Assembly (NCBI GenBank): GCA_044892525.1
Contig: CM097885.1
Span: 48,050,172-48,114,000, forward strand
Reading direction: 5' to 3'
DNA: 63,829 nucleotides
Source of the DNA: Schmidtea polychroa
Taxonomy: Eukaryota
The notes under the pieces are model-generated. The model had not been told where the DNA came from. It saw nothing but the letters and a program-made list of their open reading frames with translations, and did no database searches. The translations under genes and the position numbers were made by a program. Positions within the stretch are counted from its first letter, which is position 1. Each line of letters starts with the position of its first letter. Positions 10,631 to 59,696 of this stretch are shown piece after piece.

Positions 10631-12439
10631 AGTAGGTAGTTATGTGCATTCTAGATCCATGTGCACTCTAGATCCAGATACCCCCCCTATTTTTTTAAAA
10701 ATTTTTTTAAAAGACCCCCCCTACTTTTTTTTAAAAATTTTTAAAAGACCCCCCCCCATAATTTTTTTTAAAAAATTTTTAAAATACCCCCCCCTATTTT
10801 TTTTAAATTTAAATTTTTGTTTTAATTATCGATTACGTAATAATTTTATTATTTTTGTTTTAATCATCGATTACGTAATAATTTTTTTGTTTTAACCATC
10901 GATTACGTAAAATTTTTGTTTTAATTATTGATTAAATAATATTTTAATTTGTTTTAATCGTCGATTACGTCATTGATTTTAATTTTTTATAAGAATTTTT
11001 TATGTCATTATATTTGAAATTTAATTCTCTGTTAAATGAGACTATGATGTAATCAAAGTTCTGAAATTTCATTTTTAGTATACCATTTTTAAATTTACAC
11101 ATCTTTTTAAACAAATTGAGATATTTTCACTCAAACAATATATATATAGAATTTTAATCTCTATAAGATGACATCATTATTTACTTCAAATTCATAATCA
11201 TAACACCTTTAACAATGTATTTTTCAGCCAACTTTTACATACACACACATATTTTCAACTTTTAAAAAATACAAATTATTCATCTATACTTAACTCATAG
11301 TAAATAATTATATTAAAAGATATATTAAAAGATGTATTAAAAACTAAACATTTATTAAAATCCTAGAGAAATTCGATCACTATCTAATTTCCAAATCGGT
11401 GATATGACATCTTTCTCATCTATTTTATATACCTGTATTGACATATTTACAAACCAGCTTTCCCCATCTTTATATTCAATTTTATATAACAAAGACATAT
11501 TGCATACAAAGACACACATTACTCATCATACTTTTTAAATATATTACGTTGCGGTATTTTAAAATGTAAATTTATTTTAAAAACTTATTTTGACGGTTAA
11601 GTTGACAAAATAAAATTATTGCACATACTTTGTCTATATAGTCTATCAGACAAGATATTCTGTTCCTCTACGGGTAATGGTCACAAAGGTACTGCTAAAA
11701 CTTTAACATATTATTACACACAATGTATAAAAAAAAATCTTATTAGTGTCCACACATGCAACAAGTTATTATTATTATTATTATTATTTTCAAAGTATTA
11801 TAATTATATATACTCCTAGTCTATCCGACAAGATATTCTGTCCCCCTATGTGTAATGGTCACAAAAGTAAAGGTCACAAAGGTAAAGGTCACAAATGTAC
11901 TGCTAAAATTATTCAAGACAAAACTTTAACAAAGAAATTCTAAATATTATACTTTAAATATACACTCAAATTTATTAACACATTGGGTAATGGTCACAAA
12001 GGTAAAGGTCGCAAAGGTACTGCTAAAAATTATTCAAGACAGAACTTTAACAAAGAAATTCTAAATATTATACTTTAAATATACACTAAAATTTATTAAC
12101 ACATTGGGTAATGGTCGCAAAGGTAAAGGTTACTAATGTACTGCTGGCAAAGGTACTACTCACATTCAACATGTCGTAAATTATTTTCAAATACAATTTC
12201 AAAGTATTATTATTATTTATTATTAAAATTAAAATTATTATTAAATTCTGACCAACTTAAATCAATGAAGGGGTACGACAAAAATATATTACGTTACGGT
12301 ATTTTAAAATTTAAAAAACTTATTTTGACACTAAAGTTTACTTATTTAACAAAGACATAATTATTGCACATGCTTTGCATAAATATTATTATTTTTGGAA
12401 TTTTCAATATTTTCTTTCAAAGTATTAACACGCGCGGGA

Positions 12440-12493
<54 letters not shown>

Positions 12494-12555
12494 GAAAAAG
12501 CTAAAATATTTTTTACACACATATACAACCCATTAAACTTTATTATTATTATCAA

Positions 12556-12602
<47 letters not shown>

Positions 12603-14071
12603 GTCAAAAACCTAAAATAATTTTTACACACTAGGTTATGGGGTAGAGAATTATTATATGTTTGCAGTATTCTTAGTTGGCGAAGTCCTAAACAAAGAAA
12701 TCTATTGAACCATCTAATAACACAGAATATGATCATCCTTTACATGAAATTATCAATAAGGAGCGATAATTTATATACACATATATACACATACCTTGTT
12801 TAACATAGGTGTATATACTCCTAGTCTATCCGAAAAAATATTCTGTCCCCCTATGGGTATTGCTAGCAAGGGTACTACTTACATTCAACATGTCGTAAGG
12901 GTATATTAATTAGGGTTAGTAAATAAAACTTATTACATGTAAACCATATTTTTAATAATTATTTAAACTATAAAAATCAAGACAAGAGAGGACAAGGCAA
13001 AGTTTATGCAATTATTATTGCCAGGCCTAATGAGCAGTGACCAAATATCTGTGCCTGAAAGACACGGTGGATATTTGTTCGCGTCCACAAGGGTCGTCTG
13101 TGCCTCCCCCAAGTGGGGTCAGAAGAACCTGGGCATTATAGTTCTCCGTACGGAACATTACGCCTAGCATGGGTAGTCAACTACCAGCACATTTGAAACG
13201 TATTAAAAATATATTTCAAAATACATGCGTCATTGGCACTATAACCAAATTAGTTAATGTTTTCACTAACAACAATATATATTTACAGAGGCCTCCCACT
13301 AGTTGGATTACAACCGCCCACCACGACGATCAGCTTGTGAATATATATTAATTAAGGGATAAAGAGGGCCCCCCAACCTTATTATATTTAATTTACAAAA
13401 TGTTTTAAAGGGTTTCTCCGTCAGTTTTCTCACTCTTCTGAATTTTCTCTGGAATTTGTTGGTAATCTAGCATTATTATTATTATTTAAATTATTATTAT
13501 TATAAGTATTATAATTATTATTTTTAAGATTTTATTCTGAGAACAAATTCTAATAATATCAACAAATTTGTATTTATTTTAATTACTATTATCAATTACT
13601 TAGTTGGCGAAGTCCTAAACAAAGAAATCTATTGAACCATCTAATAACACAGAATATGATCATCCTTTAAATTAATTAATAAAATATTTTTATTATGATA
13701 AAGAAATAAACCTAGTTCTTTCCGAATTTCATTTATATATCCACAGGTAATGTCAGTAAGTTGGATTCATCTATAAATTTATATCACATTTATTATTTAA
13801 AGTTAAACTACCCACTGAGAATGACTGAGATAAAGTTTCGCAAACAATAAACTGTAGTTCTCTGGATAGAAAAGAAAGAATTTTCAAAAAATCCACTAAA
13901 ATTTTATCACAAATAGTATTGAATAAATAATTTTGAAATTCTGTTCTAAAATAGAGTTATAAAATTATTTTATATACAAATTAACTTTACTTTGAATTTA
14001 AAAAACTAACTATAAAATTTGCTTTTATATTTAAACAAAGTTTTAAACAAGTTATAATCAAATTATTTTTC
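10631..14071 (+). repeat. Left inverted arm (~3.44 kb)
   Basis: The ORF track gives identical mirrored translations (11619-11819+/19107-19307-, 12136-12360+/18566-18790-, 13169-13351+/17605-17787-). Confidence 0.95.
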
Positions 14072-14532
14072 GTAAAAAATGATTATTTAAAGATGATGAA
14101 CTATAAAATAAATATTATTACTTGAAAATAATTTTACATTTATTGGAAATTTATTTTTTCTTACATAAATTATTACCAAAAATTTAATATCTCTATAAAA
14201 ATATTTAATCATAAGTAAATAACATTAATTAATCTTAATTTTAATTTATATCAATTCATTAAATTTATAAAATTATTATTTATAAAATTACTTTGAATTT
14301 AAAAATCTAACTATAAAATTTATTTTTATATTTAAACAAAGTTTTAAACAAGTTATAATTAAATTATTTTTCGTAAAAATGATTAATTAAAGATGATGAA
14401 CTATAAAATAAATATTATTACTTGAAAATATTTTTATTTGTTATTGGAAATTTAGTTTTCTTACATAAATTATTACCAAAAATTTAATATCTTTATAAAA
14501 ATATTTAAGCATAAGTAAATAACATTAATTAA
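13988..14532. repeat. Tandem direct duplication (~245-bp unit, 301-bp period)
   Basis: 13988-14232 is nearly identical to 14289-14532. Confidence 0.9.
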
Positions 14533-14539
14533 ATTAATC

Positions 14540-14990
14540 TAACAACCAAGTACTTACATCTAGACACTAACAACTAGACACTAACAACTAGTTACCGTTT
14601 ACATAGTACAAGATATCAACAACCTACAACTAGATACCAACAACCTGTACCAACAATGTATTACAAATGGCTACCAAGTACTAACAACTATCTACTACCA
14701 ACCAGATACTAACAACCAAGTACTTACAACTAGACACTAACAACTAGTTACCGTTTACATAGTACAAGATATCAACAACAACAATAACAACAACAACAAG
14801 AACTGGATACATACAACTAGATACCAACAACCTGTTACCAAATACCAACAACCTGTTACCGAATAGGTACTAACAACTATCTACTAAGTACCAACCTAAA
14901 TTCAATCACCCACCAAGTATTTTCAACTACTCACTAACAACTACCAAGTACTAAGCACTTACAACTAGGTGTTAACAAATAGATTTAAAA
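14540..14990. repeat. C/A-rich cryptic minisatellite
   Basis: Repeated ACAACTAG / TACTAACAACT / TACCAACAACC motifs. A ~50-bp block at ~14580 is repeated at ~14730. Confidence 0.85.
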
Positions 14991-15138
14991 GAAACTTGTT
15001 CTTCATTGAAGAAAATGATAATCATTGAATGAAAATAATAATAATAATAAAAATGCAACTGATTGACTGAATTCAAGGTACCAGTACTTGTAAGATTCCA
15101 AATAACTAGGTAAAAATTGATGAAATTATTTTAAAAAT

Positions 15139-16859
15139 AACATGTAAAACATTTAAATTATTCAAAACCTAGTAAATAAATATCATAAAAAGTCAATTAA
15201 TGGACAAGAAAGAACTTGAAATTATAGTCATTGATAATCCAGTAAATATTTATCATTCAAGTTATTAATAAAGTAATTTTAATGATTTCAAATTGATTGA
15301 CTGATTGCTCAAATTATTCAGAAAATTCAGTATAAATTCATTACAAATTATCAAAGTTGTCAATCTAGACTAAAAATATCTAAATAATTATCAATAATTT
15401 CCAAAGGAAACTGATATAAGTCCACTAATGATAACATCTAATAAACCAGTAAATTCATTTATATGACAATATTTAACATTCTTTTTATATCCAAGTGAAT
15501 TCTCCACTAAAATCATCTAAAAAGCTTCAAATTTCCTTAAAATAACTATCCGTCTTTAAAGATTAATATTTTATCGATAAGTATCTGTAAAAGATAATAT
15601 CTAACTAATACGATTTATTAAAATCCATTTAAATGACTATAATTCTAACTCCTTTAACTTTGATTATCTAAAGATTACAAATATTTCACTATAAAACATC
15701 TAAAATCAAGTAAATTAAATTGGTCATTAACCTCAAATAATTTATAAAATCATTTGATAAAACCAGTTATAATTATAAAGAATTAAATTTTTGTTCTATC
15801 ACTCTACTCGAAATTTAAAATAAATATTACTGTACTTTTAACTGAAAATATCACCCTTAGAATATTCCCACATAACTGATCTCTCACCAAATAACTCTAC
15901 CCCATATTTATATCCAACCGAATATATATATCCAAAGATTCATGAAATTCCACCCACTTGAAATCAATTCTTTAAAAACCCTTAGAAAATGTGAAAAATC
16001 TTCAAAAATATGAATTTAGATATATAATAAGAGCATCCCTGATCAAAATTTAATAAAATCAATATTTTCTACAAATCAACAAAATATTTCACCTCATCTA
16101 CCATCAAATACCTAATTAGAGATTATATTTTCTCATTGATTGAAGAAAACTTTGATAAAATTATTCTGAGGAGCTAAGAATCTTCATTGAAATAGAATTA
16201 TTATAGGGAAAATAAATTGATTGATCAAATTATTCATCGATTTCAACCAAATTTTATTATTCTTTGAACTATATGATAAATTATCCAAAAATATATTAAA
16301 AGAATTGGTTATTATTTCAAAGTCAAATACCATTTCATGGTTTGACATGTGACAATTTAGGTAAGAAATAATCCTTTTATTAATAATGTGAACAATCAAC
16401 AGGCGCTATTTACAATATTTATTTTCACACTAATAATCATCGAATGATTTATATTCACCCCACAAATATTTCTTCTGTAAAATTGAACTAAATACTCAAG
16501 TGATGTTTTAAATAAATACTTAATATATCTCCAATCTTATACGTCAACTTTTCATTAAAAACATTTCAATACAACTTGTCAGTGTATTTTCCTTTAGCAA
16601 TTATACCAGTAGACATTAATTCTATCTCAATTAAGATTTCCATCCTTTATGAATAATTATCTTAGCACTGAATTTTCTGAATAATTTGAGCAATCAGTCA
16701 ATCAATTTGAAATCATTAAAATTACTTTATTAATAACTTGAATGATAAATATTTACTGGATTATCAATGACTATAATTTCAAGTTCTTTCTTGTCCATTA
16801 ATTGACTTTTTATGATATTTATTTACTAGGTTTTGAATAATTTAAATGTTTTACATGTT
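15139..16859. repeat. Nested inner inverted repeat (193-bp arms, 15139-15331 and 16667-16859)
   Basis: Direct reverse-complement match read from the sequence. Confidence 0.9.
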
Positions 16860-16884
16860 TTAAATGTTTTTAAATGTTTTACAT

Positions 16885-18353
16885 GAAAAATAATTTGATT
16901 ATAACTTGTTTAAAACTTTGTTTAAATATAAAAGCAAATTTTATAGTTAGTTTTTTAAATTCAAAGTAAAGTTAATTTGTATATAAAATAATTTTATAAC
17001 TCTATTTTAGAACAGAATTTCAAAATTATTTATTCAATACTATTTGTGATAAAATTTTAGTGGATTTTTTGAAAATTCTTTCTTTTCTATCCAGAGAACT
17101 ACAGTTTATTGTTTGCGAAACTTTATCTCAGTCATTCTCAGTGGGTAGTTTAACTTTAAATAATAAATGTGATATAAATTTATAGATGAATCCAACTTAC
17201 TGACATTACCTGTGGATATATAAATGAAATTCGGAAAGAACTAGGTTTATTTCTTTATCATAATAAAAATATTTTATTAATTAATTTAAAGGATGATCAT
17301 ATTCTGTGTTATTAGATGGTTCAATAGATTTCTTTGTTTAGGACTTCGCCAACTAAGTAATTGATAATAGTAATTAAAATAAATACAAATTTGTTGATAT
17401 TATTAGAATTTGTTCTCAGAATAAAATCTTAAAAATAATAATTATAATACTTATAATAATAATAATTTAAATAATAATAATAATGCTAGATTACCAACAA
17501 ATTCCAGAGAAAATTCAGAAGAGTGAGAAAACTGACGGAGAAACCCTTTAAAACATTTTGTAAATTAAATATAATAAGGTTGGGGGGCCCTCTTTATCCC
17601 TTAATTAATATATATTCACAAGCTGATCGTCGTGGTGGGCGGTTGTAATCCAACTAGTGGGAGGCCTCTGTAAATATATATTGTTGTTAGTGAAAACATT
17701 AACTAATTTGGTTATAGTGCCAATGACGCATGTATTTTGAAATATATTTTTAATACGTTTCAAATGTGCTGGTAGTTGACTACCCATGCTAGGCGTAATG
17801 TTCCGTACGGAGAACTATAATGCCCAGGTTCTTCTGACCCCACTTGGGGGAGGCACAGACGACCCTTGTGGACGCGAACAAATATCCACCGTGTCTTTCA
17901 GGCACAGATATTTGGTCACTGCTCATTAGGCCTGGCAATAATAATTGCATAAACTTTGCCTTGTCCTCTCTTGTCTTGATTTTTATAGTTTAAATAATTA
18001 TTAAAAATATGGTTTACATGTAATAAGTTTTATTTACTAACCCTAATTAATATACCCTTACGACATGTTGAATGTAAGTAGTACCCTTGCTAGCAATACC
18101 CATAGGGGGACAGAATACTTTTTCGGATAGACTAGGAGTATATACACCTATGTTAAACAAGGTATGTGTATATATGTGTATATAAATTATCGCTCCTTAT
18201 TGATAATTTCATGTAAAGGATGATCATATTCTGTGTTATTAGATGGTTCAATAGATTTCTTTGTTTAGGACTTCGCCAACTAAGAATACTGCAAACATAT
18301 AATAATTCTCTACCCCATAACCTAGTGTGTAAAAATTATTTTAGGTTTTTGAC

Positions 18354-18388
<35 letters not shown>

Positions 18389-18450
18389 TTGATAATAATA
18401 ATAAAGTTTAATGGGTTGTATATGTGTGTAAAAAATATTTTAGCTTTTTC

Positions 18451-18486
<36 letters not shown>

Positions 18487-20276
18487 TCCCGCGCGTGTTA
18501 ATACTTTGAAAGAAAATATTGAAAATTCCAAAAATAATAATATTTATGCAAAGCATGTGCAATAATTATGTCTTTGTTAAATAAGTAAACTTTAGTGTCA
18601 AAATAAGTTTTTTAAATTTTAAAATACCGTAACGTAATATATTTTTGTCGTACCCCTTCATTGATTTAAGTTGGTCAGAATTTAATAATAATTTTAATTT
18701 TAATAATAAATAATAATAATACTTTGAAATTGTATTTGAAAATAATTTACGACATGTTGAATGTGAGTAGTACCTTTGCCAGCAGTACATTAGTAACCTT
18801 TACCTTTGCGACCATTACCCAATGTGTTAATAAATTTTAGTGTATATTTAAAGTATAATATTTAGAATTTCTTTGTTAAAGTTCTGTCTTGAATAATTTT
18901 TAGCAGTACCTTTGCGACCTTTACCTTTGTGACCATTACCCAATGTGTTAATAAATTTGAGTGTATATTTAAAGTATAATATTTAGAATTTCTTTGTTAA
19001 AGTTTTGTCTTGAATAATTTTAGCAGTACATTTGTGACCTTTACCTTTGTGACCTTTACTTTTGTGACCATTACACATAGGGGGACAGAATATCTTGTCG
19101 GATAGACTAGGAGTATATATAATTATAATACTTTGAAAATAATAATAATAATAATAATAACTTGTTGCATGTGTGGACACTAATAAGATTTTTTTTTATA
19201 CATTGTGTGTAATAATATGTTAAAGTTTTAGCAGTACCTTTGTGACCATTACCCGTAGAGGAACAGAATATCTTGTCTGATAGACTATATAGACAAAGTA
19301 TGTGCAATAATTTTATTTTGTCAACTTAACCGTCAAAATAAGTTTTTAAAATAAATTTACATTTTAAAATACCGCAACGTAATATATTTAAAAAGTATGA
19401 TGAGTAATGTGTGTCTTTGTATGCAATATGTCTTTGTTATATAAAATTGAATATAAAGATGGGGAAAGCTGGTTTGTAAATATGTCAATACAGGTATATA
19501 AAATAGATGAGAAAGATGTCATATCACCGATTTGGAAATTAGATAGTGATCGAATTTCTCTAGGATTTTAATAAATGTTTAGTTTTTAATACATCTTTTA
19601 ATATATCTTTTAATATAATTATTTACTATGAGTTAAGTATAGATGAATAATTTGTATTTTTTAAAAGTTGAAAATATGTGTGTGTATGTAAAAGTTGGCT
19701 GAAAAATACATTGTTAAAGGTGTTATGATTATGAATTTGAAGTAAATAATGATGTCATCTTATAGAGATTAAAATTCTATATATATATTGTTTGAGTGAA
19801 AATATCTCAATTTGTTTAAAAAGATGTGTAAATTTAAAAATGGTATACTAAAAATGAAATTTCAGAACTTTGATTACATCATAGTCTCATTTAACAGAGA
19901 ATTAAATTTCAAGCATAATGACATAAAAAATTCTTATAAAAAATTAAAATCAATGACGTAATCAACGTTTTAAAAATTTTAAAAATTGTTACATAATCGA
20001 CGATTAAAACAAATTAAAATATTATTTAATCAATAATTAAAACAAAAATTTTACGTAATCGATGGTTAAAACAAAAAAATTATTACGTAATCGATGATTA
20101 AAACAAAAATAATAAAATTATTACGTAATCGATAATTAAAACAAAAATTTAAATTAAAAAAAAAATAGGGGGGGGTTTTTTTTAAAATTTAAAAAAAAAG
20201 TAGGGGGGGGGTCTTTTAAAAAATTTTTAAAATTTCTAGAGTGCACATGGATCTAGAGTGCGCATAACTACCTACT
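16885..20276 (-). repeat. Right inverted arm (~3.39 kb)
   Basis: Reverse complement of 10631-14071, apart from microsatellite length, C/G-tract unit number, a short extra block at ~19965-19997 and a few substitutions. Confidence 0.95.
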
Positions 20277-20780
20277 TTTATTGTCACGGAAGATGAACTA
20301 ATAAGTCCATCTGCCTCTGATTCCGATTTTATATTCTGTTCGACAGGCTAAATATTTCTCTATTATTCTTGATTGCACTTCTGATCAGAGTCATAAAGAG
20401 CAGATGTCTATCACAATACGCTTTGTAGATATTAATGAAGATGTTTCTATACGCGAGCATTTCGTTGGTTTTATTGTAGTCGAAGATTCAACAGGCAGGG
20501 TCTTACCAAGGCCTTTCTGGAAGAATTGCAAAAAGGAAATATTTTGTCAATGTAAATGTTTTATGATTTTCCAACTAATTTATATTAACAAGTGCTGATT
20601 GTACTTATTAAAGAAATTATAATAATAAATAACTTAGCTGGGGTATGACATGGGTAATGTTGTGGGCCACTATGCAGTAGTTCATCATTCAATTACAACG
20701 TGTCAGACATGAGGTAGTGTGGGGCTCAGTCTGGTCAGAGGACGCCAAAATGTATGCATTGCCTAGGGCACCATTTCAAA
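20277..20780 (+). pseudogene. hAT (ZMYM1-like) transposase remnant, right part
   Basis: AKYFSIILDCTSDQSHKEQMSITIRFVD...IREHFVGFIVVEDSTG is the first catalytic-D region of Ac-like hAT transposases. The right TIR was not found. Confidence 0.8.
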
Positions 20781-22728: not shown

Positions 22729-22838
22729 TTTTAAGATTGACAAGGACTATCGTATAGTCGAAAATTCTTTCATTAAATACATTATTTGCAGCAAAAGGCT
22801 TAAATTATCATTTTATTGTTTTAAATAATAAATGCTGC
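22685..22838 (+). repeat. (TAA)n plus a single arm of family A
   Basis: Matches 66-172 and runs into an N-run at the same family position (after ...AAATGCTGC). Confidence 0.85.
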
Positions 22839-26129: not shown

Positions 26130-26599
26130 GTAAAAATTTCATGAAATTAATTTAATGAAATTTCAATATTTTATTTAATTAATTTATGCACAAATATATA
26201 TTGATAAAAAGTATCAACCTCCAAAGGGCTTATGACGGATTATTTTATTATAGACAGAATCACTTTTCTGCGATTATGGAGGTTATATGCACAATGTAGA
26301 AATTTAGGTAAATCTTTTTGGACTGGACTTATACATCGTTAGACGTGAGGAGAGGTCGTTTCAGTAAAGAAAATCTTTGTTATAAAAAAATTATTGTTAT
26401 AGTTTACTACAAGTAGATAGATGTGTGGACTCCAGCCTATCAGGAATCCTCGACTCAAACAAATTTTTTTGGCAGCCCCACACCATAAAATATTTAAAAA
26501 TTTGTTTTAATCATCAATTATGTAATATTAAAAAATTTTAAATCACTGATTACATCAATTTTAATTTTTTATAAGAATTTCAAAGACACTATTGCTTGA

Positions 26600-27240
26600 A
26601 ATTAGATTCTCTAATTAATGAGACTATTAAGTAATCAAAATTTTGAAATTTCATGTTTAGTACACCTTTTTTGAATTTTCACATAATTTTAATAATTTCA
26701 CATAATAATTTTCACATAATTTCACATAATAACAACTTGAGATATTTTAAATCTCTACAAAAAGGCATCATTATATATTTCAAATAACACCTTAAACAGC
26801 GCCTTTTTCAGTCAACTTTTACATAAACATACATTTCCTATATTTAAAAAATACAAATTATTCATCTATACGTAAAAAAATTCATTCTGCTATTAAAAAA
26901 TATTATTAAAATACATATTAAAAACTAAATATGGATTAAAATCCCATTTATTAAAATCTACACTTCAAATTGGTGATTTGACATCTTTCTCATCCATTTT
27001 ATATCCCTGTATTGAAATATGTACAAACCAGCTCTCACCATCTTTATATTCAATTTCTTCAAAGGCATCATGAAATCGGGAATTTCGATTGTTGATGAAT
27101 ATATTTTCATTGCAACTTAGATTCTTATTGATTTTCCCCAGCACTTTATTTACTCTAACAACATCTTCTTTTGTTATATGAGCAATGAGACTTGAATTTG
27201 ACTGCATTTGATAATTTATATGAAATTTCATCTACCTAGA
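26600..27240 (-). pseudogene. Decayed Maverick accessory ORF of unknown function
   Basis: ORF 26965-27231 (IEYKDGESWFVHISIQGYKMDEKDVKSPI) has a close homologue (IEYKDGESWFVNMSIQVYKIDEKDVISPI) in both arms of the 10631-20276 element. Confidence 0.65.
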
Positions 27241-27529
27241 AATATCTCTTAAAGTTATAATACATTTGTACTGGTTTCACATCTTTTTTGTTTTAAACCG
27301 GTTTCGTCTCAGTTATTTTCTTAATTGAACTTGTTTCTTTCATGAAATTAAAAAATGATTTCTCCCCAAAAACATTCTTCTTAGATTGCATTTTTAAAAA
27401 TAATGACTATTATTAGGTGAGCCTTCATAAACGTTGAATTGTTTTATATTTATCATCATAAACAATGGATCAATTACCTATGGCTCATTTACCCAATCTT
27501 ATTCTAAATTTTAAATCATCTTGTTGTAA

Positions 27530-28354
27530 TGGAGAAGATATGGACAAACCCGAAAGATCCATTAGGTTTTGGTGAAGTTGCAATGTTTAAGAAAATAGTA
27601 CCAAAGTCAAAAAATTAGATGCAAAAGTAGTTGTCGAGTCAATTGGCATACAGTTTAAAAAAACCAACATTGAAACGGTTTCGCACATTAGCATATAAAA
27701 CATATCAAAGATTTATGGCAAATAGATTTAATGGAAATCATTCGATTTTCTAAAATTTTCTATTTCGACATGTATTGATGTTTTAGTAGATTTGCTATAG
27801 CTATGCTCTTGAAAACCGAATCTGCTTGTGAAATGGTAGTTGCAATAAAAACAATCTTTAAAAATGGTAAACCAAATAATTTACAAACTGATTTGGGTAA
27901 AGAATTTTATAATAGTAAAGTTAAAGAAAATCTAAAGGGAATAAATAATTACTCTGCTTTTTCTCATTTCAAAGCTGCTTACGTGAAAAGGTTTAATAGA
28001 ACATTAAGATATCGTTTGAAAAAGAATTTTGTACATCAAGATATCAAAACTTGGATAAATGTTTTACCGAAAATAATTCATATGTACAATCATTCAGAAC
28101 ATAGAGATTTAAAGGGTATGAGCCCGATTGATGTAACATCTAAAAATACTATGAAAATATTATTATCACAACAAGATATAACAAAAACTACGAAACCTAA
28201 ATATGAAGTTAGTGATCATGTTGATATAAGTAAAATATCGGCTTCACCATTCATTAAATATTTTGACAACAACTGGAGGGATGTCTTTGAAATATTAAAG
28301 ATTAATACGAAACAGAGTCTTGTTATGTGTGTTATTAAAGATATTGACCTATAA
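27530..28354 (+). pseudogene. Maverick-type retroviral-like (rve) integrase, frameshifted
   Basis: WQIDL-like motif upstream, then KPNNLQTDLGKEFYN (second D) and KAAYVKRFNRTL (position of ERFNRTL). The N-terminal part is broken by stops and frameshifts. Confidence 0.85.
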
Positions 28355-28882
28355 TTTTAATTATACAAAATAATAATCAACAAAATCTCAAGAATTACTC
28401 AAGGAAACAAAAACAGAAACGGAGTCAAGAATGATAAGATTTATTTATTATTATTAATATTAATTTTTATAGGAACTAAAATAAATACTAACATTGCCAA
28501 AATATTAAATTACAATTGATGTAATCAAGAAATTTAAATTTTGTTGAAATATTTCGTAATTTATGATTAAATCAAAAATTAAAATATTATGTAATCACCG
28601 ATTAAAACAAATTTTGAAGAAATATTCTGATGGGTCACCTAAAAAAGGTACTTCGCCCAAAAAAAAATTTTGAAAGAAATTCCCATGAGCTGGAGTCCAA
28701 ACATATATCTACTACTACAATATATAACACTTTTATCGAAATTAGTATAAGCCAGGGGCGGCTCACGAAATTTTGTCCAAGCCGAGCCCCCTATGTAAAC
28801 TTTTATGAAGCGCCTATCTTAAAGAATGTCAACTGAAACATTACGTTTTAATCATTTCAATTTCTTAATTCAACGTGTAGGT

Positions 28883-31800
28883 TAGGGTGGGTCGAATGTT
28901 AATAAATTTTGAGTTCAAGAAAGGAAACATGGTTAAAAAGTTGTATTTTGGTATAGAAAAATCGAATCAAACCATTTTACTTAGATTTATGGACATTTAC
29001 TGCTCCCAACTTTTCTCCGAAAATGCAGTTCAACATAAGTGTGAAAACAATGTAATTTGGCCAGTGTCGGAATGTGTTTTGCGCCTTTGTCCATATTTAG
29101 ATGTAGCTTTCTTAAGAGCTTATAAGTATATTATTTACTCTCTTGGGCTGAGATAGTATATTCTGTGTCCTCATCCCGCATTGAAATATATCCTGACAAC
29201 GTCAGTGATTAGGAAGGGCCAAATTCGAATTATCCTTTTCAAAGACAAAAATCAACTTTCGAAATTATTTTTTATTAAAAACATCCAGCCAAAAGTTTAG
29301 AAATGTATTAGCGAGGGCATAAAAAGAAGTCACATGAAATCAGCTTTGCTTTGCACCTTGGGCAATTCCTTCCTTGATTTTTTACACAGTAGTACCATAC
29401 CATGTCTGGACTTGTGACCAAACACTTTGCAACTGGCAGAAGAAACATCTTTGATGGCTCTTTCAACGGCTTGAGAATGACAGGGAAATTGTTCTAATGT
29501 AATTTTCTTATTCATCTTCAATTCATGATCCAATATATGAGATAAAAAAGCGGGAGGCGTCAAATTACATTTTGTCCAGTCAATCATGTCAACATATGAT
29601 GTAGCAGACGACTGAAGAAAGACAGTATTCTTGTCCATAGTGCGAATCACTTCGGAAGGGAGAAAATTTTGTCTTGCAGTTATGATTTTTTCTGTTGAAA
29701 ACTTTCTGATTTCTTCATCATCATCACCAACAGCAGCTAGGAGTATATTTTCTGGATGTGAGAAGTAATTGTTGTTCTAAATGACAGGAAAGATGATTTC
29801 TTGGTCTGATGGATCCAAATCCTGCAGAAGTTGGAGCATATAAAAAATATTTCTTGCACCATCTTGGCATGACGAGTGAGTCTTTATATAAAACCATGAC
29901 GGTCCATAGAAATTGACAATAAATTTCACTATTCGCATGAGAGGTTCAGATGGAGCAGTTTCGGACATATATAGTCGCAGAATTCTATTAGCTTTCGTTA
30001 GCCAGCGACTGTGATTCAAATTTCCTGGTTGTGCCATTTGTAGAAAAGGGACATCCTTGTTGTTGTGGTACTCTTTCTGGACTGCCAAGCATACTCTGAG
30101 GAAATACAATTGATCAGTGTTCAATTCTTTCTTGACATTTTCACTAATATCTACGACCTTTCCAGGAAGGGACATAAAGGTTACTACGGGCTTGTCTTTT
30201 GGATCAAAATCAAGAACGCTTCCTATTTCACCACATGACGTTTTTGGACCTTTTGTTTCTCCACCATCGACGACTGAAAAATACTTCCTGAATGGCAATT
30301 CATTTGCATGCAACAAGCATATCAGCCATTGTAGAGGTCGCCCTAGGCTTTTTTCGAGTCTTCTGATTATTCCATTATTTTTTCCGGTGTTTGTATTGGT
30401 TCCATCGCACACAATTGCTTGAAGGGTCAGTGAGGACTGCGTGCTAACGATGATTGACATGATTTCTTTGCCAATATCCACAGCTTTACTACTTTGAGGT
30501 ACAACATGATCGATATATGTATCCCCTGGAAAGGCGACAATCACATAATGCTCCTCTTTTAGGATCCTTCTATGAAGTAAGGTGGAATCTTGTTTCCCGT
30601 CGAAACCGAGGCAAATCAAGTTTTTCGCTTCTGCTGAATGCTGTTCAATTTCTCTCTCCCTCCAGTACTTTCTCTGACGCCGTAATTTTGCGGGATCGAT
30701 GATTGTTTGAGAGGATAACAGTTCCATATCTTTCAGAAAAGCGTTTACTAGCAAACACGTGTCTCTGTTGCTCACACCACATCTATCAACAGCTTTACTT
30801 AATTCAGGATAATGTCTTCTATTTTGAAATTCATCACATTCTTCTACGCTTGACTCTGAGCTTTCTGTTGAATTGTCTAACTTATCTTTACTTTCATCAC
30901 TAGCGGCTTCACTCTCCGTGTCACTTCTTGAGGTCGGATGTAGATCGTTAACTTCAGTGTCCATTATTTCATTTTTCATTTGTTTTCCTTTTCCTGTAGG
31001 GCTGCTTTTCGTTTGTTTTCTCTTCAATTTTGAGGTTTCCTGTCTGTCCGCATTTCCGATTTTCATGTTTCTGGTAGTTTGTTGGTCAATCCAGAACTCC
31101 CACTCTAAGGTAGGAATTTTCAAGGCCAATCGGCATGTACACTGACTTCTTCCACGAGCACCATCATTAAAACATTTGCAGCAACATATGTCAAACAATT
31201 TGGAAAACGAGCTTAACTTATCTTGAAATTTGGCAGATGACCTCTTGCATTCTGGATACTTCTCTAATTCACGCACTTTTGATATTAGTCGCTTGACACG
31301 AACCACAATACTACTGAACTCAACAGTTGGGATACTTGCCTTCATATAAATTTCCTTCACCTTATTTGCGAGAAGAGTTGCTTGTTCGTTAAAGCCAGTA
31401 TGAAATTGCGTACATTTCTCATTGTAACAGTAATCACGAAACACATCTTCACAAGTAGGTAATTGGTTTCTGGGTAATTCACAAGTTTGACCAAACAGAC
31501 AATGACGTGATTTACTTCTTGTTTTGCGAAATTGCTTATTTCTCTGTCCCTTCATAACTGCTCTTCTGTACTCAGCTCTGGCAAAATAAAGGTGAATCAT
31601 CAAGTTAACTTTTTTAATTAGGTCCAGCAAACACTTGACATCCAATCGAAACAAATTAAATTATCTGAGTTTAGACTGACTAGTAGTATCCATGTGGATT
31701 ATGTGTTGACTGTAGTGTGTGTGTTAGTATTGTTCAGAAGAAATTGTCTTTGTGAGTGCTTGTGTGAAGGTGCTTCCGTGAATTAACCTCTCTATACATG

Positions 31801-48202: not shown

Positions 48203-48253
48203 GTATGAAAAAATTTAATTTCTTCAGATTTATTTGAATATTCTTCGCATTAG

Positions 48254-48504
48254 ATAAAGTATGTCATAAAGAATGTTCTGAAAAGGGATGTTGGGGACCT
48301 GGAAATAAACTTTGTTATAACTGTAGGAATTATGAAGCAGCTGACTCATGTGTGTCGGATTGTCGTCAAAAGAAAGGATTTTATTTCCCCAAAAACTCGA
48401 CAATTTTAAGCAATCAGACATGCCTCAGATGTCATCCTGAATGTTTGAACACGTGCTTAGGTCCTAATCCAAATCAGTGCATTAAAGGGTGTAAAAATAA
48501 AAGA
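48254..48504 (+). CDS. EGFR: EGFR-like exon, domain IV
   Basis: attag|...|gtaatt. DKVCHKECSEKGCWGPGNKLCYNCRNY...CLRCHPECLNTCLGPNPNQC. Confidence 0.93.
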
Positions 48505-48586
48505 GTAATTGATTTTACTTTTGTTAAATTTTTAAAATTGTTTTTCAATTTAATTAAAATTATATTTATTTATTTATATATATCAG

Positions 48587-48761
48587 GAAAATGGAACCTG
48601 TGTTGCATCATGTTCCAAGAATTTTTATAATCCATTAAATAATACTAAGGCTTGTTTAGCCTGTCATCCAAATTGTACAGAATATAATTCCACTGTTTGT
48701 ACTGGTCCATCGTCGGTACCGGGCTTCGGTGGCTGTAACAAATGCGAAAGGATTTTATTAA
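48587..48761 (+). CDS. EGFR: EGFR-like exon, extended Cys-rich region
   Basis: atcag|...|gtaaat. ENGTCVASCSKNFY...CLACHPNC...CTGPSSVPGFGGCNKCERILL. Confidence 0.92.
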
Positions 48762-57253: not shown

Positions 57254-59696
57254 CAGGGCTTCTTAAACTTTTTTCATTTACGACCCCATTTATGATTGCG
57301 AGTTTCCTAGCGACCCCATATAAATATAACAGAAAGATAAATAAGTATTTTTTGATGGTTTATTTATTATGTAACAATACACATGAAAAAATATAGTTTT
57401 AGAATTCGTTTGGAAACATACAAAAATTTAAAATTAAATTTAATGAGATGGATGTGCCTGTTTTTTATTGCATAACAAATTAAATCTTGGTGGAATGTTT
57501 GACACTGCTGGACGTAAGACCTCTACAACATTTTTTAGCGATGAATGATATTGGGATTTAATATGTGTTAAAGCTGAGAAAGTAACTTCACATAAATATG
57601 TGGTGTTGAATGGCAGAAGCACATTTAACGCCATATCAGCGATTGTGGGAAATTCAGTTCTAGTTCCGATCCAGAATTTAGTCAAGGGCTTTTTTGGAAA
57701 ATGTAGTTTTAGGTTTGAGTCACTCGAAAGCTCAGCAAATTCCTCTTGTGCTTTAAGTGGCAGGTGATCAATCTCACTCAAGTCAGTCCAAAACGGTTTT
57801 TGAATCCAAGCTACCTTTTTGAAATCAATATTTAATATAAAATATGTGCGGAACTGTGTTTCTAGCGTTTTTAAGTGATCTACAATAATTATTGCGATAA
57901 TAGTTTTACAATGATTTTTCTCGATTATAAAATTGTCGAGACTGGAAAACATTTCGAACGAATTCTTTTCTACTCTACTTTTCCAAATGTTGATCTTTTT
58001 AATAAAACTTTCAATTTTATCATTAGAAGTAAATATATCGCAATTTTTTCCTTGAAGAGACAAGTTGAGATCGTTTAATTTCTCAAAGATATCTGACAAA
58101 TAACACAGCTTAGATAGCCATAAGTCATTTTGAAAAAAAGCAGCAAGTTCACATTTTCGTTCGGTTAAAAATATTTCGATTTCATCCTTTAATAACAATA
58201 ATCTTCTTAAACTTTTACCTCTTGACAGCCATCTTACTTCTGCATGTAATAATAAAGTTGTGTAGTTGGAATCCGTATCCTTGCAGAGATTTGAAAATAA
58301 GCGACTGTTAAGGGCATGGCTCTTAATAAAATTTATAATCTTTACAGCATTCTGAAGCACATCGTTCAATTCTGGTGCTAATTTTTTTGATGCAAGGGCC
58401 TCTCTGTGAATAAGACAGTGAGTAAAAGTTATATGATCATAAGGAGCAGCTTGAAAAAATGATTTAAAACCAATATTTTTGCCCGTCATCGCTCTTGCAC
58501 CATCTGTGCATATTCCACAGCAATTTTTCCATTCTAAACCTTCAGTTTTTAAAAATTCGTCAACTTTACAATATATGTCTTTCCCTGTAGTATGGTCTTT
58601 CATAGGACGAGAAAATAACAATTCTTCCTCCACGTTTTCTTTATAAACGTACCTGACATATACTAACAACTGAGCCAATTTATTAATATCCGTTGTTTCG
58701 TCCAACTGAATTGAAAATTTTGGGCTTTCTTTAATTCTTGCAATAAGTTGCACTAATTGGTCCTTGTTAATATCAGAAATTCTATTCGCGACAGTATCGT
58801 TCGACAAAGGAATTTTTCGAATATCATCGCCATATTTACTTCCATGTAGTATTTCTACCATTTTAATAGCAGCAGGTAATATAAGATCTTCTCCAATGGT
58901 GAACGGCTTTTTCTTTTTAGCAATACAGTATGAAACTTCATATGACGCTAATAAATATTTTTCATTAACGGTCATAAATTTTTGAAAGGATTTTTTTTCT
59001 TTATTTAAAGATTTATACAATCTTTCAAAATATTCTTTTGGTTTATTGACATACGAAACATGCTTTGATTCAAGATGTCTTTTTAATTTTGATGGTTTCA
59101 TACTCTCCGCAGCCAATAATTCATTGCAGATCAAACAAAGAGGTTGTTCATTACCATTACAAATTTGAAATGTAAAGCCAAATTGAAGAAAAGACTCATC
59201 ATATTTTCTTTTTCGCACATTAAATGGCTGTTTTTCAATACTTTGTCCTGCCTGAGGAGAGTTTGTAGCATTATCATCTGCGTCATTATCATTCTTATTT
59301 AAGTTCAGCCATTTATCCATGGCCAATAAATATATAAAAATAACATATTGCATATAATAATTGTCATTAAAAAATGTCATTAAATTTAATAACACATAAA
59401 AATTTCACAAATATTACTTTAAAATGAAGTTCAATAAAATTAATATTATTTTAATAAATAAACAAAAGTAGTACATTAATTTATACTATAAATTTTATAC
59501 TATTCTGATATATTATAAATTAATCGAAAAGTAATTTTCGAAAACAAAATATTTTTAGAGTTAAAAAACATTAAATAGTCATTAATTTAAAAAAAAATCG
59601 TGTATTTAAATATTTGGCATTAAAAATCTCTCGCGACCCCAGAATTATGCTAAGCGACCCCATTTGGGGTCGCGACCCATAGTTTAAGAAGGCCTG
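57254..59696 (-). mobile_element. Full-length Buster/Charlie-type hAT transposon (2443 bp)
   Basis: TIR CAGGGCTTCTTAAACT / AGTTTAAGAAGGCCTG, GCGACCCC subterminal repeats and 8-bp TSD GTTTAAAG / GTTTAAAT (central TA). Confidence 0.92.
57440..59320 (-). CDS. Uninterrupted Buster-type hAT transposase (~626 aa from MDKWL; ZBED5/SCAND3/FAM200-like)
   Basis: BED finger CLIC...HLESKH, then LDETTD, CTDGA, CLIHRE, EVRWLSRG and YLCEVTFS. No stops or frameshifts. Confidence 0.92.
   Translation of the reverse strand: MDKWLNLNKNDNDADDNATNSPQAGQSIEKQPFNVRKRKYDESFLQFGFTFQICNGNEQPLCLICNELLAAESMKPSKLKRHLESKHVSYVNKPKEYFERLYKSLNKEKKSFQKFMTVNEKYLLASYEVSYCIAKKKKPFTIGEDLILPAAIKMVEILHGSKYGDDIRKIPLSNDTVANRISDINKDQLVQLIARIKESPKFSIQLDETTDINKLAQLLVYVRYVYKENVEEELLFSRPMKDHTTGKDIYCKVDEFLKTEGLEWKNCCGICTDGARAMTGKNIGFKSFFQAAPYDHITFTHCLIHREALASKKLAPELNDVLQNAVKIINFIKSHALNSRLFSNLCKDTDSNYTTLLLHAEVRWLSRGKSLRRLLLLKDEIEIFLTERKCELAAFFQNDLWLSKLCYLSDIFEKLNDLNLSLQGKNCDIFTSNDKIESFIKKINIWKSRVEKNSFEMFSSLDNFIIEKNHCKTIIAIIIVDHLKTLETQFRTYFILNIDFKKVAWIQKPFWTDLSEIDHLPLKAQEEFAELSSDSNLKLHFPKKPLTKFWIGTRTEFPTIADMALNVLLPFNTTYLCEVTFSALTHIKSQYHSSLKNVVEVLRPAVSNIPPRFNLLCNKKQAHPSH

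Follow-up and report, generated by a model that had tools for sequence, protein, structure and literature searches.

The window analysed here, a stretch of 63,829 nucleotides, carries at 10631-20276 a gene-less palindromic element whose existence is confirmed and whose ends are those of a Maverick. We favour, with somewhat better than even confidence, the explanation that it is a palindrome that bears at each end the outer 852 nt of a resident Maverick's terminal inverted repeat (TIR), that it is likely moved by the polymerase and integrase of that Maverick, and that its long arms were likely made and kept identical by break repair from arm to arm. The features on which this rests are the following.

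10625-10630, no strand: left target site duplication (TSD), TTTATT
10631-20276, no strand: complete palindromic element without genes, 9,646 bp
10631-14070, + strand: left arm, 3.44 kb
10631-11013, + strand: outer zone with subterminal tandem repeats; of the 9 substitutions between the arms upstream of 14070, 8 fall here
10631-11482, + strand: 852-nt outer part with homology to the TIRs of the unit-length 15-kb Maverick family, family A (mate 19444-20276), 94% identity outside the subterminal repeats
11358-11480, - strand: final 41 codons of an accessory ORF of 157 aa that is truncated at the 852 junction (+ strand mate at 19446-19568)
12810-13399, no strand: GC-rich core module (mate 17557-18146), found also in palindromes with other Maverick ends but in neither unit-length family
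13291-13334, - strand: 44-nt stretch resembling the 5' Alu domain of SRP (7SL) RNA, pointing outward
14071-16884, no strand: non-coding central region with a 300-nt tandem duplication (13957-14532) and ACAAC-rich repeats (14539-14943), the rest AT-rich
16650-16666, no strand: turn point near 16657, common to other copies of the family
16667-16859, - strand: 193-nt inverted copy of 15139-15331, 100% identical
16885-20276, - strand: right arm, an inverted copy of the left arm
17622-17665, + strand: mirrored counterpart of the Alu-domain-like stretch at 13291-13334
20277-20282, no strand: right TSD, TTTATT
26412-28713, + strand: second element, a Maverick from a related subfamily with an internal deletion, TSD ACTACA, 80-87% identity to family A

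The termini, AGTAG at 10631 and CTACT at 20276, are flanked by TTTATT on either side, in line with the AGTAG...CTACT ends and 6-bp TSD given by an earlier note on this DNA, and its estimate that about 70% of the element is inverted repeat agrees with the 70.8% measured for the arms. This share rises to 74.8% with the second inverted copy (15139-15331/16667-16859), which the note does not mention and which is likely the remnant of a once longer right arm. The arms are 97.6% identical by gapped BLAST, and in a global alignment of left against right the outer 383 nt hold 8 substitutions and 8 indels, while the inner arm (11014-14070) holds a single substitution and two changes of length at microsatellites. 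The turn point near 16657 recurs in 10 more arm matches at 9 loci, beyond each of which interior sequence is repeated in inverted orientation. Run X2 has a loose end at 16657, and one of its contigs covers 16831-16912, across the point where the right arm begins, without differences, X2 being possibly the assembly's own sample. No near-identical twin of this copy was found among the family copies compared.

The longest ATG-initiated ORF in the element is 78 aa, and comparison with 91 open frames of Maverick copies revealed no gene for a protein-primed PolB, retroviral-like integrase, capsid, ATPase or protease, the sole match being the final 41 codons of the accessory ORF; the earlier statement that core genes are not recognisable therefore holds. 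A parent gene for the central region was not found either, including among relatives at 72-76% identity, and read through its stops the region has 43 of them in 538 codons, with stops in all 89 genome matches as well.

The terminal 30 nt of the element have 147 exact matches in the genome (control: 0). Among the first 100 of these, 13 of 33 paired termini are spaced 14.9-15.1 kb apart, and 16 of the remaining 20 pairs have arms of at least 1.8 kb. A perfect 6-bp TSD flanks 26 of the 30 elements with both termini and the remaining 4 have reverse-complement flanks, hence the TSDs of the family do not reflect chance. The unit-length copies of about 15 kb, hereafter family A, share the termini of the element, which is thus a non-autonomous Maverick-ended element as previously proposed, and their TIRs of about 1.4 kb (1.3-1.5 kb) bear out the expectation that autonomous members would lack equally long repeats. 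A reference unit-length copy encodes an ATPase, an rve integrase with a chromodomain, an adenovirus-like protease, a TBP-like ORF and a DJR-like capsid protein. Furthermore, a 1,305-aa ORF of family A is 60% identical to the polymerase of another Maverick family (family B), which is itself 88% identical to a PF03175 match. The shared ends suggest that helper enzymes likely act in trans on the palindromic element.

Only nucleotides 1-852 of the element match family A, and all of this is TIR sequence. The earlier note had likened the element to a copy-back defective genome with two left ends, in which one end had been copied back to replace the other, and had argued from an accessory ORF that sits at only one end of the element at 26412-28713. 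The observation on that second element is correct, and it also has a broken accessory ORF and a broken integrase; it derives by internal deletion from a subfamily related to family A. As an argument for copy-back, however, it falls, since the 157-aa accessory ORF is located within both TIRs of unit-length family A. Because of this, and because only the outer 852 nt are helper-derived, the label of a two-left-ends defective genome fails: left and right are not assignable, and the interior is shared with palindromes bearing another family's ends. Six copies of the family A TIR carry no fixed left or right markers within nt 1-1439, therefore which end was copied is not readable for this element. 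The accessory ORF has no Pfam family, no homologue at E <= 0.001 and no solved relative; the Atlas assigns it to phage ssDNA-binding clusters at 0.89, which serves as a lead only, and its single-sequence structure model (pLDDT 32) is unusable.

The interior of the element is common to palindromes with the termini of family B. A 29-mer from the shared core has 1,605 matches in the genome, and 66 of the first 100 form inverted pairs. Among family-B-ended elements, 6 of 11 are palindromes, 5 of which bear the core; of 10 additional palindromes with the core, 9 show B-like ends and are flanked by TSDs. Arm lengths vary from 1.8 to 7 kb across copies, with tandem subrepeats. Adjacent parts are often lost and the core is retained in 17/17 A-ended and 7/7 B-ended copies, which had been picked for having this interior, a selection that favours retention. 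Core-bearing palindromes number in the hundreds, whereas those built solely from helper DNA turned up a single time each, in one case with a duplicated neighbourhood. When the core module was folded, z values of -1.6 and -1.5 left a larger structure unsupported. A hammerhead, considered by eye, was dropped; Rfam lists none.

Substitutions private to this copy are mirrored in both arms in 33 cases and confined to one arm in 2 (2,549 sites). Similarly, in a 506-nt segment compared across 15 copies, divergence is 0.37% within copies versus 3.3% between them. The arms of a palindrome thus appear to evolve together and to be repeatedly made identical, likely by the copying of one arm onto the other. 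Five palindromes, about 98-99.6% alike, occupy five loci, each with its own TSD and flanks, and movement of the palindromes as whole units is supported at the level of sequence. Of 28 palindromes compared for outer and inner divergence, 15 offered too few differences between their arms, or too few callable sites, for the test; among the 13 testable ones the outer TIR is more diverged than the inner arm in 6 (P < 0.01 each), 6 have no such step and 1 leans the opposite way (6/891 outer, 15/829 inner). In unit-length copies, too, differences between the TIRs are denser in the outer 400 nt (3/1,019 vs 4/6,706), therefore the outer excess of the element may partly reflect local mutability. At two loci (C2:33726982 and C3:3742676) the inverted copy passes the terminus and takes in 2.4 or 3.6 kb of the left flank, with a TSD-matched right end further out, structures that are known from the assembly and that fold-back chimeras can mimic. 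Inverted duplications of host flank are present at several loci. Two copies, C1:218223117 and C1:72014530, combine TIRs of about 0.25 kb with perfect TSDs.

Repair on the chromosome is favoured because diverged outer ends surround fresh inner arms and because copying overshoots into host flank. A break within one arm or close to it, from an integrase cut or hairpin processing, would be repaired by invasion of the other arm; inward synthesis would lengthen or refresh the arm while the old outer end and TSD are retained, and outward synthesis could overshoot into host DNA. The whole palindrome would then be mobilised by helper enzymes. In addition, the non-coding core module may pass between the TIRs of different Maverick families through recombination, and the outer TIR would determine which helper mobilises the element.

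The main competitor, to which we assign a lesser but real chance, is copy-back during replication, in which the protein-primed polymerase switches extrachromosomally to the displaced or nascent strand, both arms are reset in each round and the helper integrase inserts the palindrome. Three independent TSD-bounded palindromes are built from two polymerase ends apiece (two in family A, one in family B), one of them has its turn in a short internal palindromic repeat that lies upstream of the polymerase gene, and some arms are free of substitutions up to the terminus, as whole-arm copying would give; two family-B palindromes show none across 6.6-6.8 kb. The young clade, with 10 mirrored and 5 one-armed substitution columns, also accords with copy-back. 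However, this process cannot copy host flank, and the interior at 10631-20276 is not helper DNA. The pure end-to-end form of the earlier note also predicts identical or better-matched termini, whereas the outer TIRs are diverged in this element and in 6/13 testable relatives, a test weakened by the higher mutability of that zone. An assembly artefact from fold-back chimeric reads is very improbable: no sequence record spans the whole element, but a TSD stands on both sides, the arms differ in private substitutions and microsatellite lengths, a contig crosses the start of the right arm, and many loci have TSDs of their own.

It is improbable that the element is an ordinary non-autonomous Maverick with passive palindromy, made by Galileo-like local recombination of TIRs, its palindrome and core being irrelevant to mobility. 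This account agrees with arm-to-arm repair on how the arms form and differs on whether structure and core are selected. The copies with short TIRs and perfect TSDs fit it, as do the lack of special conservation in the Alu-like block and the TIR extension reported in Galileo by a paper that also cites it for Polintons (PMC3573991); against it stand the core retention, subject to the selection of copies noted above, the inverted pairing of core matches and the rarity of helper-only palindromes. At the other extreme, it is unlikely, although less so, that the element is a Maverick satellite, that is, a self-consistent palindromic replicon of roughly 800 copies that would swap outer TIRs to change helper, replicate by fold-back with the helper polymerase and express from both arms a putative 7SL-derived Alu-domain RNA aiding its spread or blunting host defence.

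Each arm contains a 44-nt stretch that aligns to the 5' end of the host SRP RNA with 10 differences and an intact UGUAA motif (82% over 39 nt, E 1.9e-5). All 13 examined pairs are kept, three of them through compensatory changes on both sides, a helix-preserving pattern with P of about 2.5e-5 under random placement of the 10 changes. By sequence and predicted pairing, the stretch is related to the SRP RNA Alu domain. It is not a full SRP RNA gene, since it scores 29.7 bits with Rfam RF00017, below the gathering score of 70 (the host gene reaches 235-241), and the S domain is absent. It lies inside the core module in 30/30 loci examined out of 1,605 matches, and a 7SL-derived SINE was rejected because these loci yielded no stand-alone dispersed copies with their own TSD and tail. 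RNAs derived from 7SL include Alu, B1 and BC200. In elements chosen by their termini the block is not more conserved than the remaining core (P = 0.2); an apparent extra conservation was an artefact of fetching loci with that motif and disappeared in this set. A 113-nt candidate RNA folds no better than shuffles (z = -0.01). The stretch may represent a candidate small RNA or a promoter-like cis element.

The AGT-type end motif and 6-bp TSD are Maverick/Polinton features, and the unit-length relatives fit Mavericks in size (15-17 kb), in their integrase, polymerase, ATPase, protease and capsid genes and in their TIRs of about 1.4 kb. In contrast to Mavericks, the element lacks genes, its arms measure 3.4 kb and those of relatives reach 7 kb, and it shares only 852 nt with the unit-length family. 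Foldback-like P- or Mutator-type systems generate TSDs of 7-9 bp, and a Foldback-type system with a P or Mutator transposase was rejected given the 6-bp TSD and Maverick ends. Copy-back or palindromic behaviour of protein-primed linear replicons is known from adenovirus minichromosomes and from yeast and Streptomyces linear plasmids. Palindromes with two copies of one end that turn at short inverted repeats resemble these and were seen among helper-derived copies, whereas the element differs in its non-helper interior, its integration with a TSD and its termini, where the arms match least.

Published TIR ranges for Mavericks/Polintons are given as 46-1,447 and 100-1,500 bp (PMC8097293; bioRxiv 10.1101/2023.08.22.554363). 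As described there, the screens of Barreat and Katzourakis 2021 and of Jeong et al., respectively, require integrase, polymerase or other core genes, and thus could not list gene-less palindromes. In the account of Marzo et al. 2013 (PMC3573991), Galileo TIRs are extended by inverted recruitment of internal sequence, e.g., TIR1-F1-F1-TIR2, tandem repeats in TIRs and chimeric copies occur, repair from the other TIR is proposed, and Jurka et al. 2007 is cited for inverted-repeat expansion in Polintons. By that description the element resembles Galileo/Foldback as a structural class, with long, variable, internally repetitive inverted arms lengthened by internal sequence; Galileo, however, is a cut-and-paste element of the P superfamily, whereas here Maverick ends flank several-kb arms and a foreign core carried between the ends of different families.

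In the literature searched we found no description of gene-less palindromic Mavericks or of a 7SL-derived stretch in Mavericks; Repbase or earlier Polinton papers may cover long-TIR non-autonomous forms. Within that literature, the retention of an SRP-derived structured stretch in a Maverick-dependent element is without precedent. To our knowledge, Maverick replication and integration are largely modelled rather than shown, and these elements limit what mobilisation requires in cis to the outermost 852 nt of the TIR or less and indicate that non-unit genomes of 7-15 kb get moved. Moreover, arm-to-arm correction is recorded site by site, which makes chromosomal repair distinguishable from replication-coupled copy-back. 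Screens based on core genes overlook some 800 copies of about 12 kb, or roughly 1% of the genome as estimated from the count of the core 29-mer, and palindromes this large are potential fragile sites and potential sources of double-stranded RNA.

The element at 10631-20276 is almost certainly non-autonomous and Maverick-ended, and it is a non-autonomous Maverick of foldback-like build. It does not qualify as an autonomous Maverick, as it has no core gene and its longest ATG-ORF is 78 aa. An earlier note on the sequence had described Maverick-type ends with a 6-bp TSD, about 70% inverted repeat and the lack of any recognisable core gene, all of which hold:

10631-20276, whole palindromic element, TTTATT flanking both sides (TSD)
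10631-14070 and 16885-20276, inverted arms, together 70.8% of the element
15139-15331 and 16667-16859, further inverted copy, 193 nt, 100% identical, raising the inverted share to 74.8%

When 91 open frames of Maverick copies were compared with the element, the sole matching Maverick gene was the accessory ORF, through its last 41 codons, and coding capacity was absent from the centre in 89/89 scored matches. Aligned to each other, the arms have 8 substitutions plus 8 indels within their outer 383 nt, against only 1 substitution and 2 microsatellite length differences over the next 3.05 kb. One contig from the X2 sequencing run crosses the right-arm start without differences, covering that junction and not the whole element. 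Read depths of 10^3-10^6 for element sequence indicate that the family is very abundant. The window belongs to an AT-rich genome of 781 Mb that includes four large contigs. In X10, a run labelled as a second organism, 15340-15550 and 16651-16857 of the centre have extreme depth and the rest is mostly uncovered.

Elsewhere in the window, long ORFs at 29330-31660 (-) and 57440-59404 (-), of 627+148 aa and 654 aa, look by eye like DNA-transposon transposases, and Pfam gives a weak zinc-finger match for 57440-59404 only. At 48238-48630 (+) lies an exon from a gene for a growth-factor receptor (GF_recep_IV, Furin-like). A 404-nt near-perfect palindrome at 8401-8804, with related copies at 1-172 and 22732-22838, likely belongs to a small MITE-like family.

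The 30-nt terminus of the element has 147 exact genomic matches (control 0), and pairing neighbours no more than 25 kb apart among the 100 listed gives 33 pairs, 13 of which span 14.9-15.1 kb and 20 of which have other sizes. Eight of these 13 unit-length pairs, here called family A, and one 15.4-kb copy were examined; each is flanked by a perfect TSD and has TIRs 1.3-1.5 kb long, shorter than the arms of the element. A perfect TSD bounds 26 of the 30 elements that have both termini, and the remaining 4 are flanked by reverse-complement sequence. In the family-A reference copy there are genes for a TBP-like protein, A32-like ATPase, rve integrase with chromodomain, adenovirus-like protease and DJR-like capsid protein (Atlas 0.98), as well as a 1,305-aa ORF. 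This ORF itself has no polymerase Pfam match, and the family to which it belongs has 60% identity to the polymerase of family B, a second Maverick family with other ends, which is in turn 88% identical to a PF03175 match. Two smaller genes are common to both families (copies L053 for A and L126 for B):

L053:2063-2524 (-) and L126 near 2800-3260, 154-aa ORF, adjoining the ATPase gene in families A and B
L053:766-1236 (-) in family A and L126:2272-2694 (-) in family B, accessory ORF

The 154-aa protein of family A is a TBP match (PF00352, E 2.7e-15). The 157-aa accessory ORF, whose Atlas look-alikes are phage ssDNA-binding proteins (0.89, a lead only), is present in both TIRs of family A, and its family-B homologue (45%) is single, lies outside the TIR and adjoins the TBP-like gene, so the TIR of family A itself has likely expanded to include the ORF. 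The earlier note had argued from a one-ended accessory ORF in 26412-28713 that one end of the element was copied back over the other. Since the ORF lies in both TIRs and 26412-28713 derives from a related subfamily by internal deletion, this argument does not apply to the element; nor does the element belong to family A as its copy-back defective genome, as its match to that family is limited to nt 1-852.

All 20 non-unit pairs of family-A termini were examined, and 16 have arms of at least 1.8 kb, although two of these 16 represent a single insertion whose surroundings are duplicated. Three independent palindromes are purely family-A DNA with two polymerase ends each; the first turns at a short repeat that is self-complementary and lies upstream of the polymerase gene, and the junctions of the others are a 2-nt microhomology and an insertion of about 8 nt. 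Judged by its copies, family B, whose terminus has 171 exact matches, behaves like family A. All 11 family-B elements examined have TSDs, and they comprise 2 unit-length copies, 6 palindromes with 3.7-6.8-kb arms, and one element each with a polymerase only, with structural genes only, and without genes but with short patchy arms.

Several individual loci are also of note. A two-polymerase palindrome occurs on two contigs with flanks identical over at least 8 kb (L039-L040 and L044-L045, with L128 and L130), and is either a segmental duplication or an assembly duplicate. L118-L119 (G000:C1:77583566-77597797) carries family-B structural and integrase genes, a non-coding satellite arm replacing the polymerase half. 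L011-L012 (G000:C2:50107832-50127399), the closest relative of the element's outer arm, has, between its arms, a family-B polymerase with a frameshift, and holds a nested 10.2-kb family-B element (sole ORF polymerase, TSD TACATC). Another palindromic copy (L014:4632-5153 and L015:128-694) has host-like central ORFs, a dual-specificity phosphatase (PF00782) and an EAP30/Vps36-family fragment (PF04157). Six clustered family-A termini at L021-L024 (G000:C3:16572822-16606923), with inverted flanks and 5-6.5-kb inverted duplications, suggest repeated local rearrangement.

Reported Maverick TIRs measure 46-1,447 bp (PMC8097293) and 100-1,500 bp (10.1101/2023.08.22.554363); both screens require core genes, whereas the element is gene-less. 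Loci in C. elegans that have a polymerase and TIR and lack an integrase are described in 10.1101/2024.01.15.575659, and palindromic Maverick derivatives were not found in passages of 10.1101/2022.07.12.499685 and PMC6431247. For Galileo, Marzo et al. propose that one TIR is repaired from the other to give TIR1-F1-F1-TIR2, and the palindromes here whose outer TIR is more diverged than the inner arm match that pattern; the authors also cite Jurka et al. 2007 for reported Polinton inverted-repeat expansion (PMC3573991). Neither gene-less palindromic Mavericks nor an SRP-derived stretch in them was found in the literature searched, which lay outside the founding papers and Repbase.

The arms of the palindromes evolve together. 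A 506-nt segment in 15 copies differs by 0.37% between own arms versus 3.3% between copies; the window copy shows 0/506 between its arms versus 14 to its nearest relative, and over 2,549 callable sites its private substitutions number 33 on both arms versus 2 on one. Its turn near 16657 recurs in 10 additional arm matches, spread over 9 loci, so mirroring is later than the founding fold-back. The palindromes also appear to move; five that are about 98-99.6% alike occupy separate loci and differ in TSD and flanks, and four of them share one central junction. From column 280 on, these five have 10 mirrored and 5 one-armed substitution columns, not counting one column at a microsatellite and the tail of the shorter copy, which is misaligned.

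We consider it fairly probable that break repair on the chromosome would copy one arm from the other, with helper enzymes mobilising the element; the shared ends point to such helper use. Chromosomal copying is favoured because copying extends into host flank and outer TIRs are more diverged than inner arms. At C2:33726982 and C3:3742676, an inverted copy in the assembly passes the left terminus, continues through host flank for 2.4 or 3.6 kb and rejoins a right end carrying the matching TSD, and three further loci have inverted flanks. Among 28 palindromes, 13 have enough differences for comparison, and the outer TIR (nt 401-1450) is more diverged than the inner arm in 6 (P < 0.01 each; 34/589 versus 4/4,308 in one case), with no step in 6 and the opposite lean in 1. 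Against chromosomal copying, the outer zone also varies more when the TIRs of unit-length copies are compared, and the overshoot loci are known from the assembly. In the rival explanation, the polymerase makes the arms by copy-back. Two family-B palindromes with zero substitutions over 6.6-6.8 kb to the last base are as copy-back would give, but the tracts entering host flank and the diverged outer TIRs point to the chromosome, and copy-back is thus rather unlikely. Both processes may act.

The arms also contain a GC-rich core (12810-13399, mate 17557-18146) with an SRP-like stretch (13291-13334 (-), mirror copy 17622-17665 (+)). The Rfam SRP match in each arm is weak (29.7 bits against a threshold of 70, E 6.6e-6), and the stretch is 82% identical over 39 nt to the 5' end of the host SRP RNA, whose gene is a tandem array of a 593-bp unit (G000:C2:31932512-31980502). 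It has 10 differences in 44 nt and keeps 13/13 pairs examined, and in 3/6 pairs of the first helix both partners have changed (P ~2.5e-5, random placement); the helix pairs come from the Rfam structure and the remaining ones were hand-picked. The stretch is absent from both unit-length families. It shows no extra conservation over the rest of the core (P = 0.2; 28/29 elements chosen by termini) and shuffled sequences fold as well as the 113-nt candidate RNA, which points against present function. The stretch may be a remnant of a 7SL-derived element, and a putative Maverick satellite with its own RNA seems improbable.

The core is 94-95% identical to that of gene-less B-ended palindromes, to which the arm has patchy homology (72-89%) at about nt 900-2770. 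Around the SRP-like stretch it is kept in 17/17 A-ended and 7/7 B-ended copies, which were chosen for having the element's interior. A 29-mer of the core has 1,605 genomic matches (control 0), with 30/30 loci examined lying within the module and 66 of the first 100 matches in outward-pointing pairs 3.4-12 kb apart. All 10 core pairs examined are palindromic, and 9 are TSD-bounded elements of 9.1-14.7 kb whose ends are B-like and whose interiors contain no ORF of 120 aa. The population of core-bearing elements is roughly estimated at 800, and because the core-bearing palindromes examined are mostly B-like-ended, the window copy is an A-ended minority member of this population.
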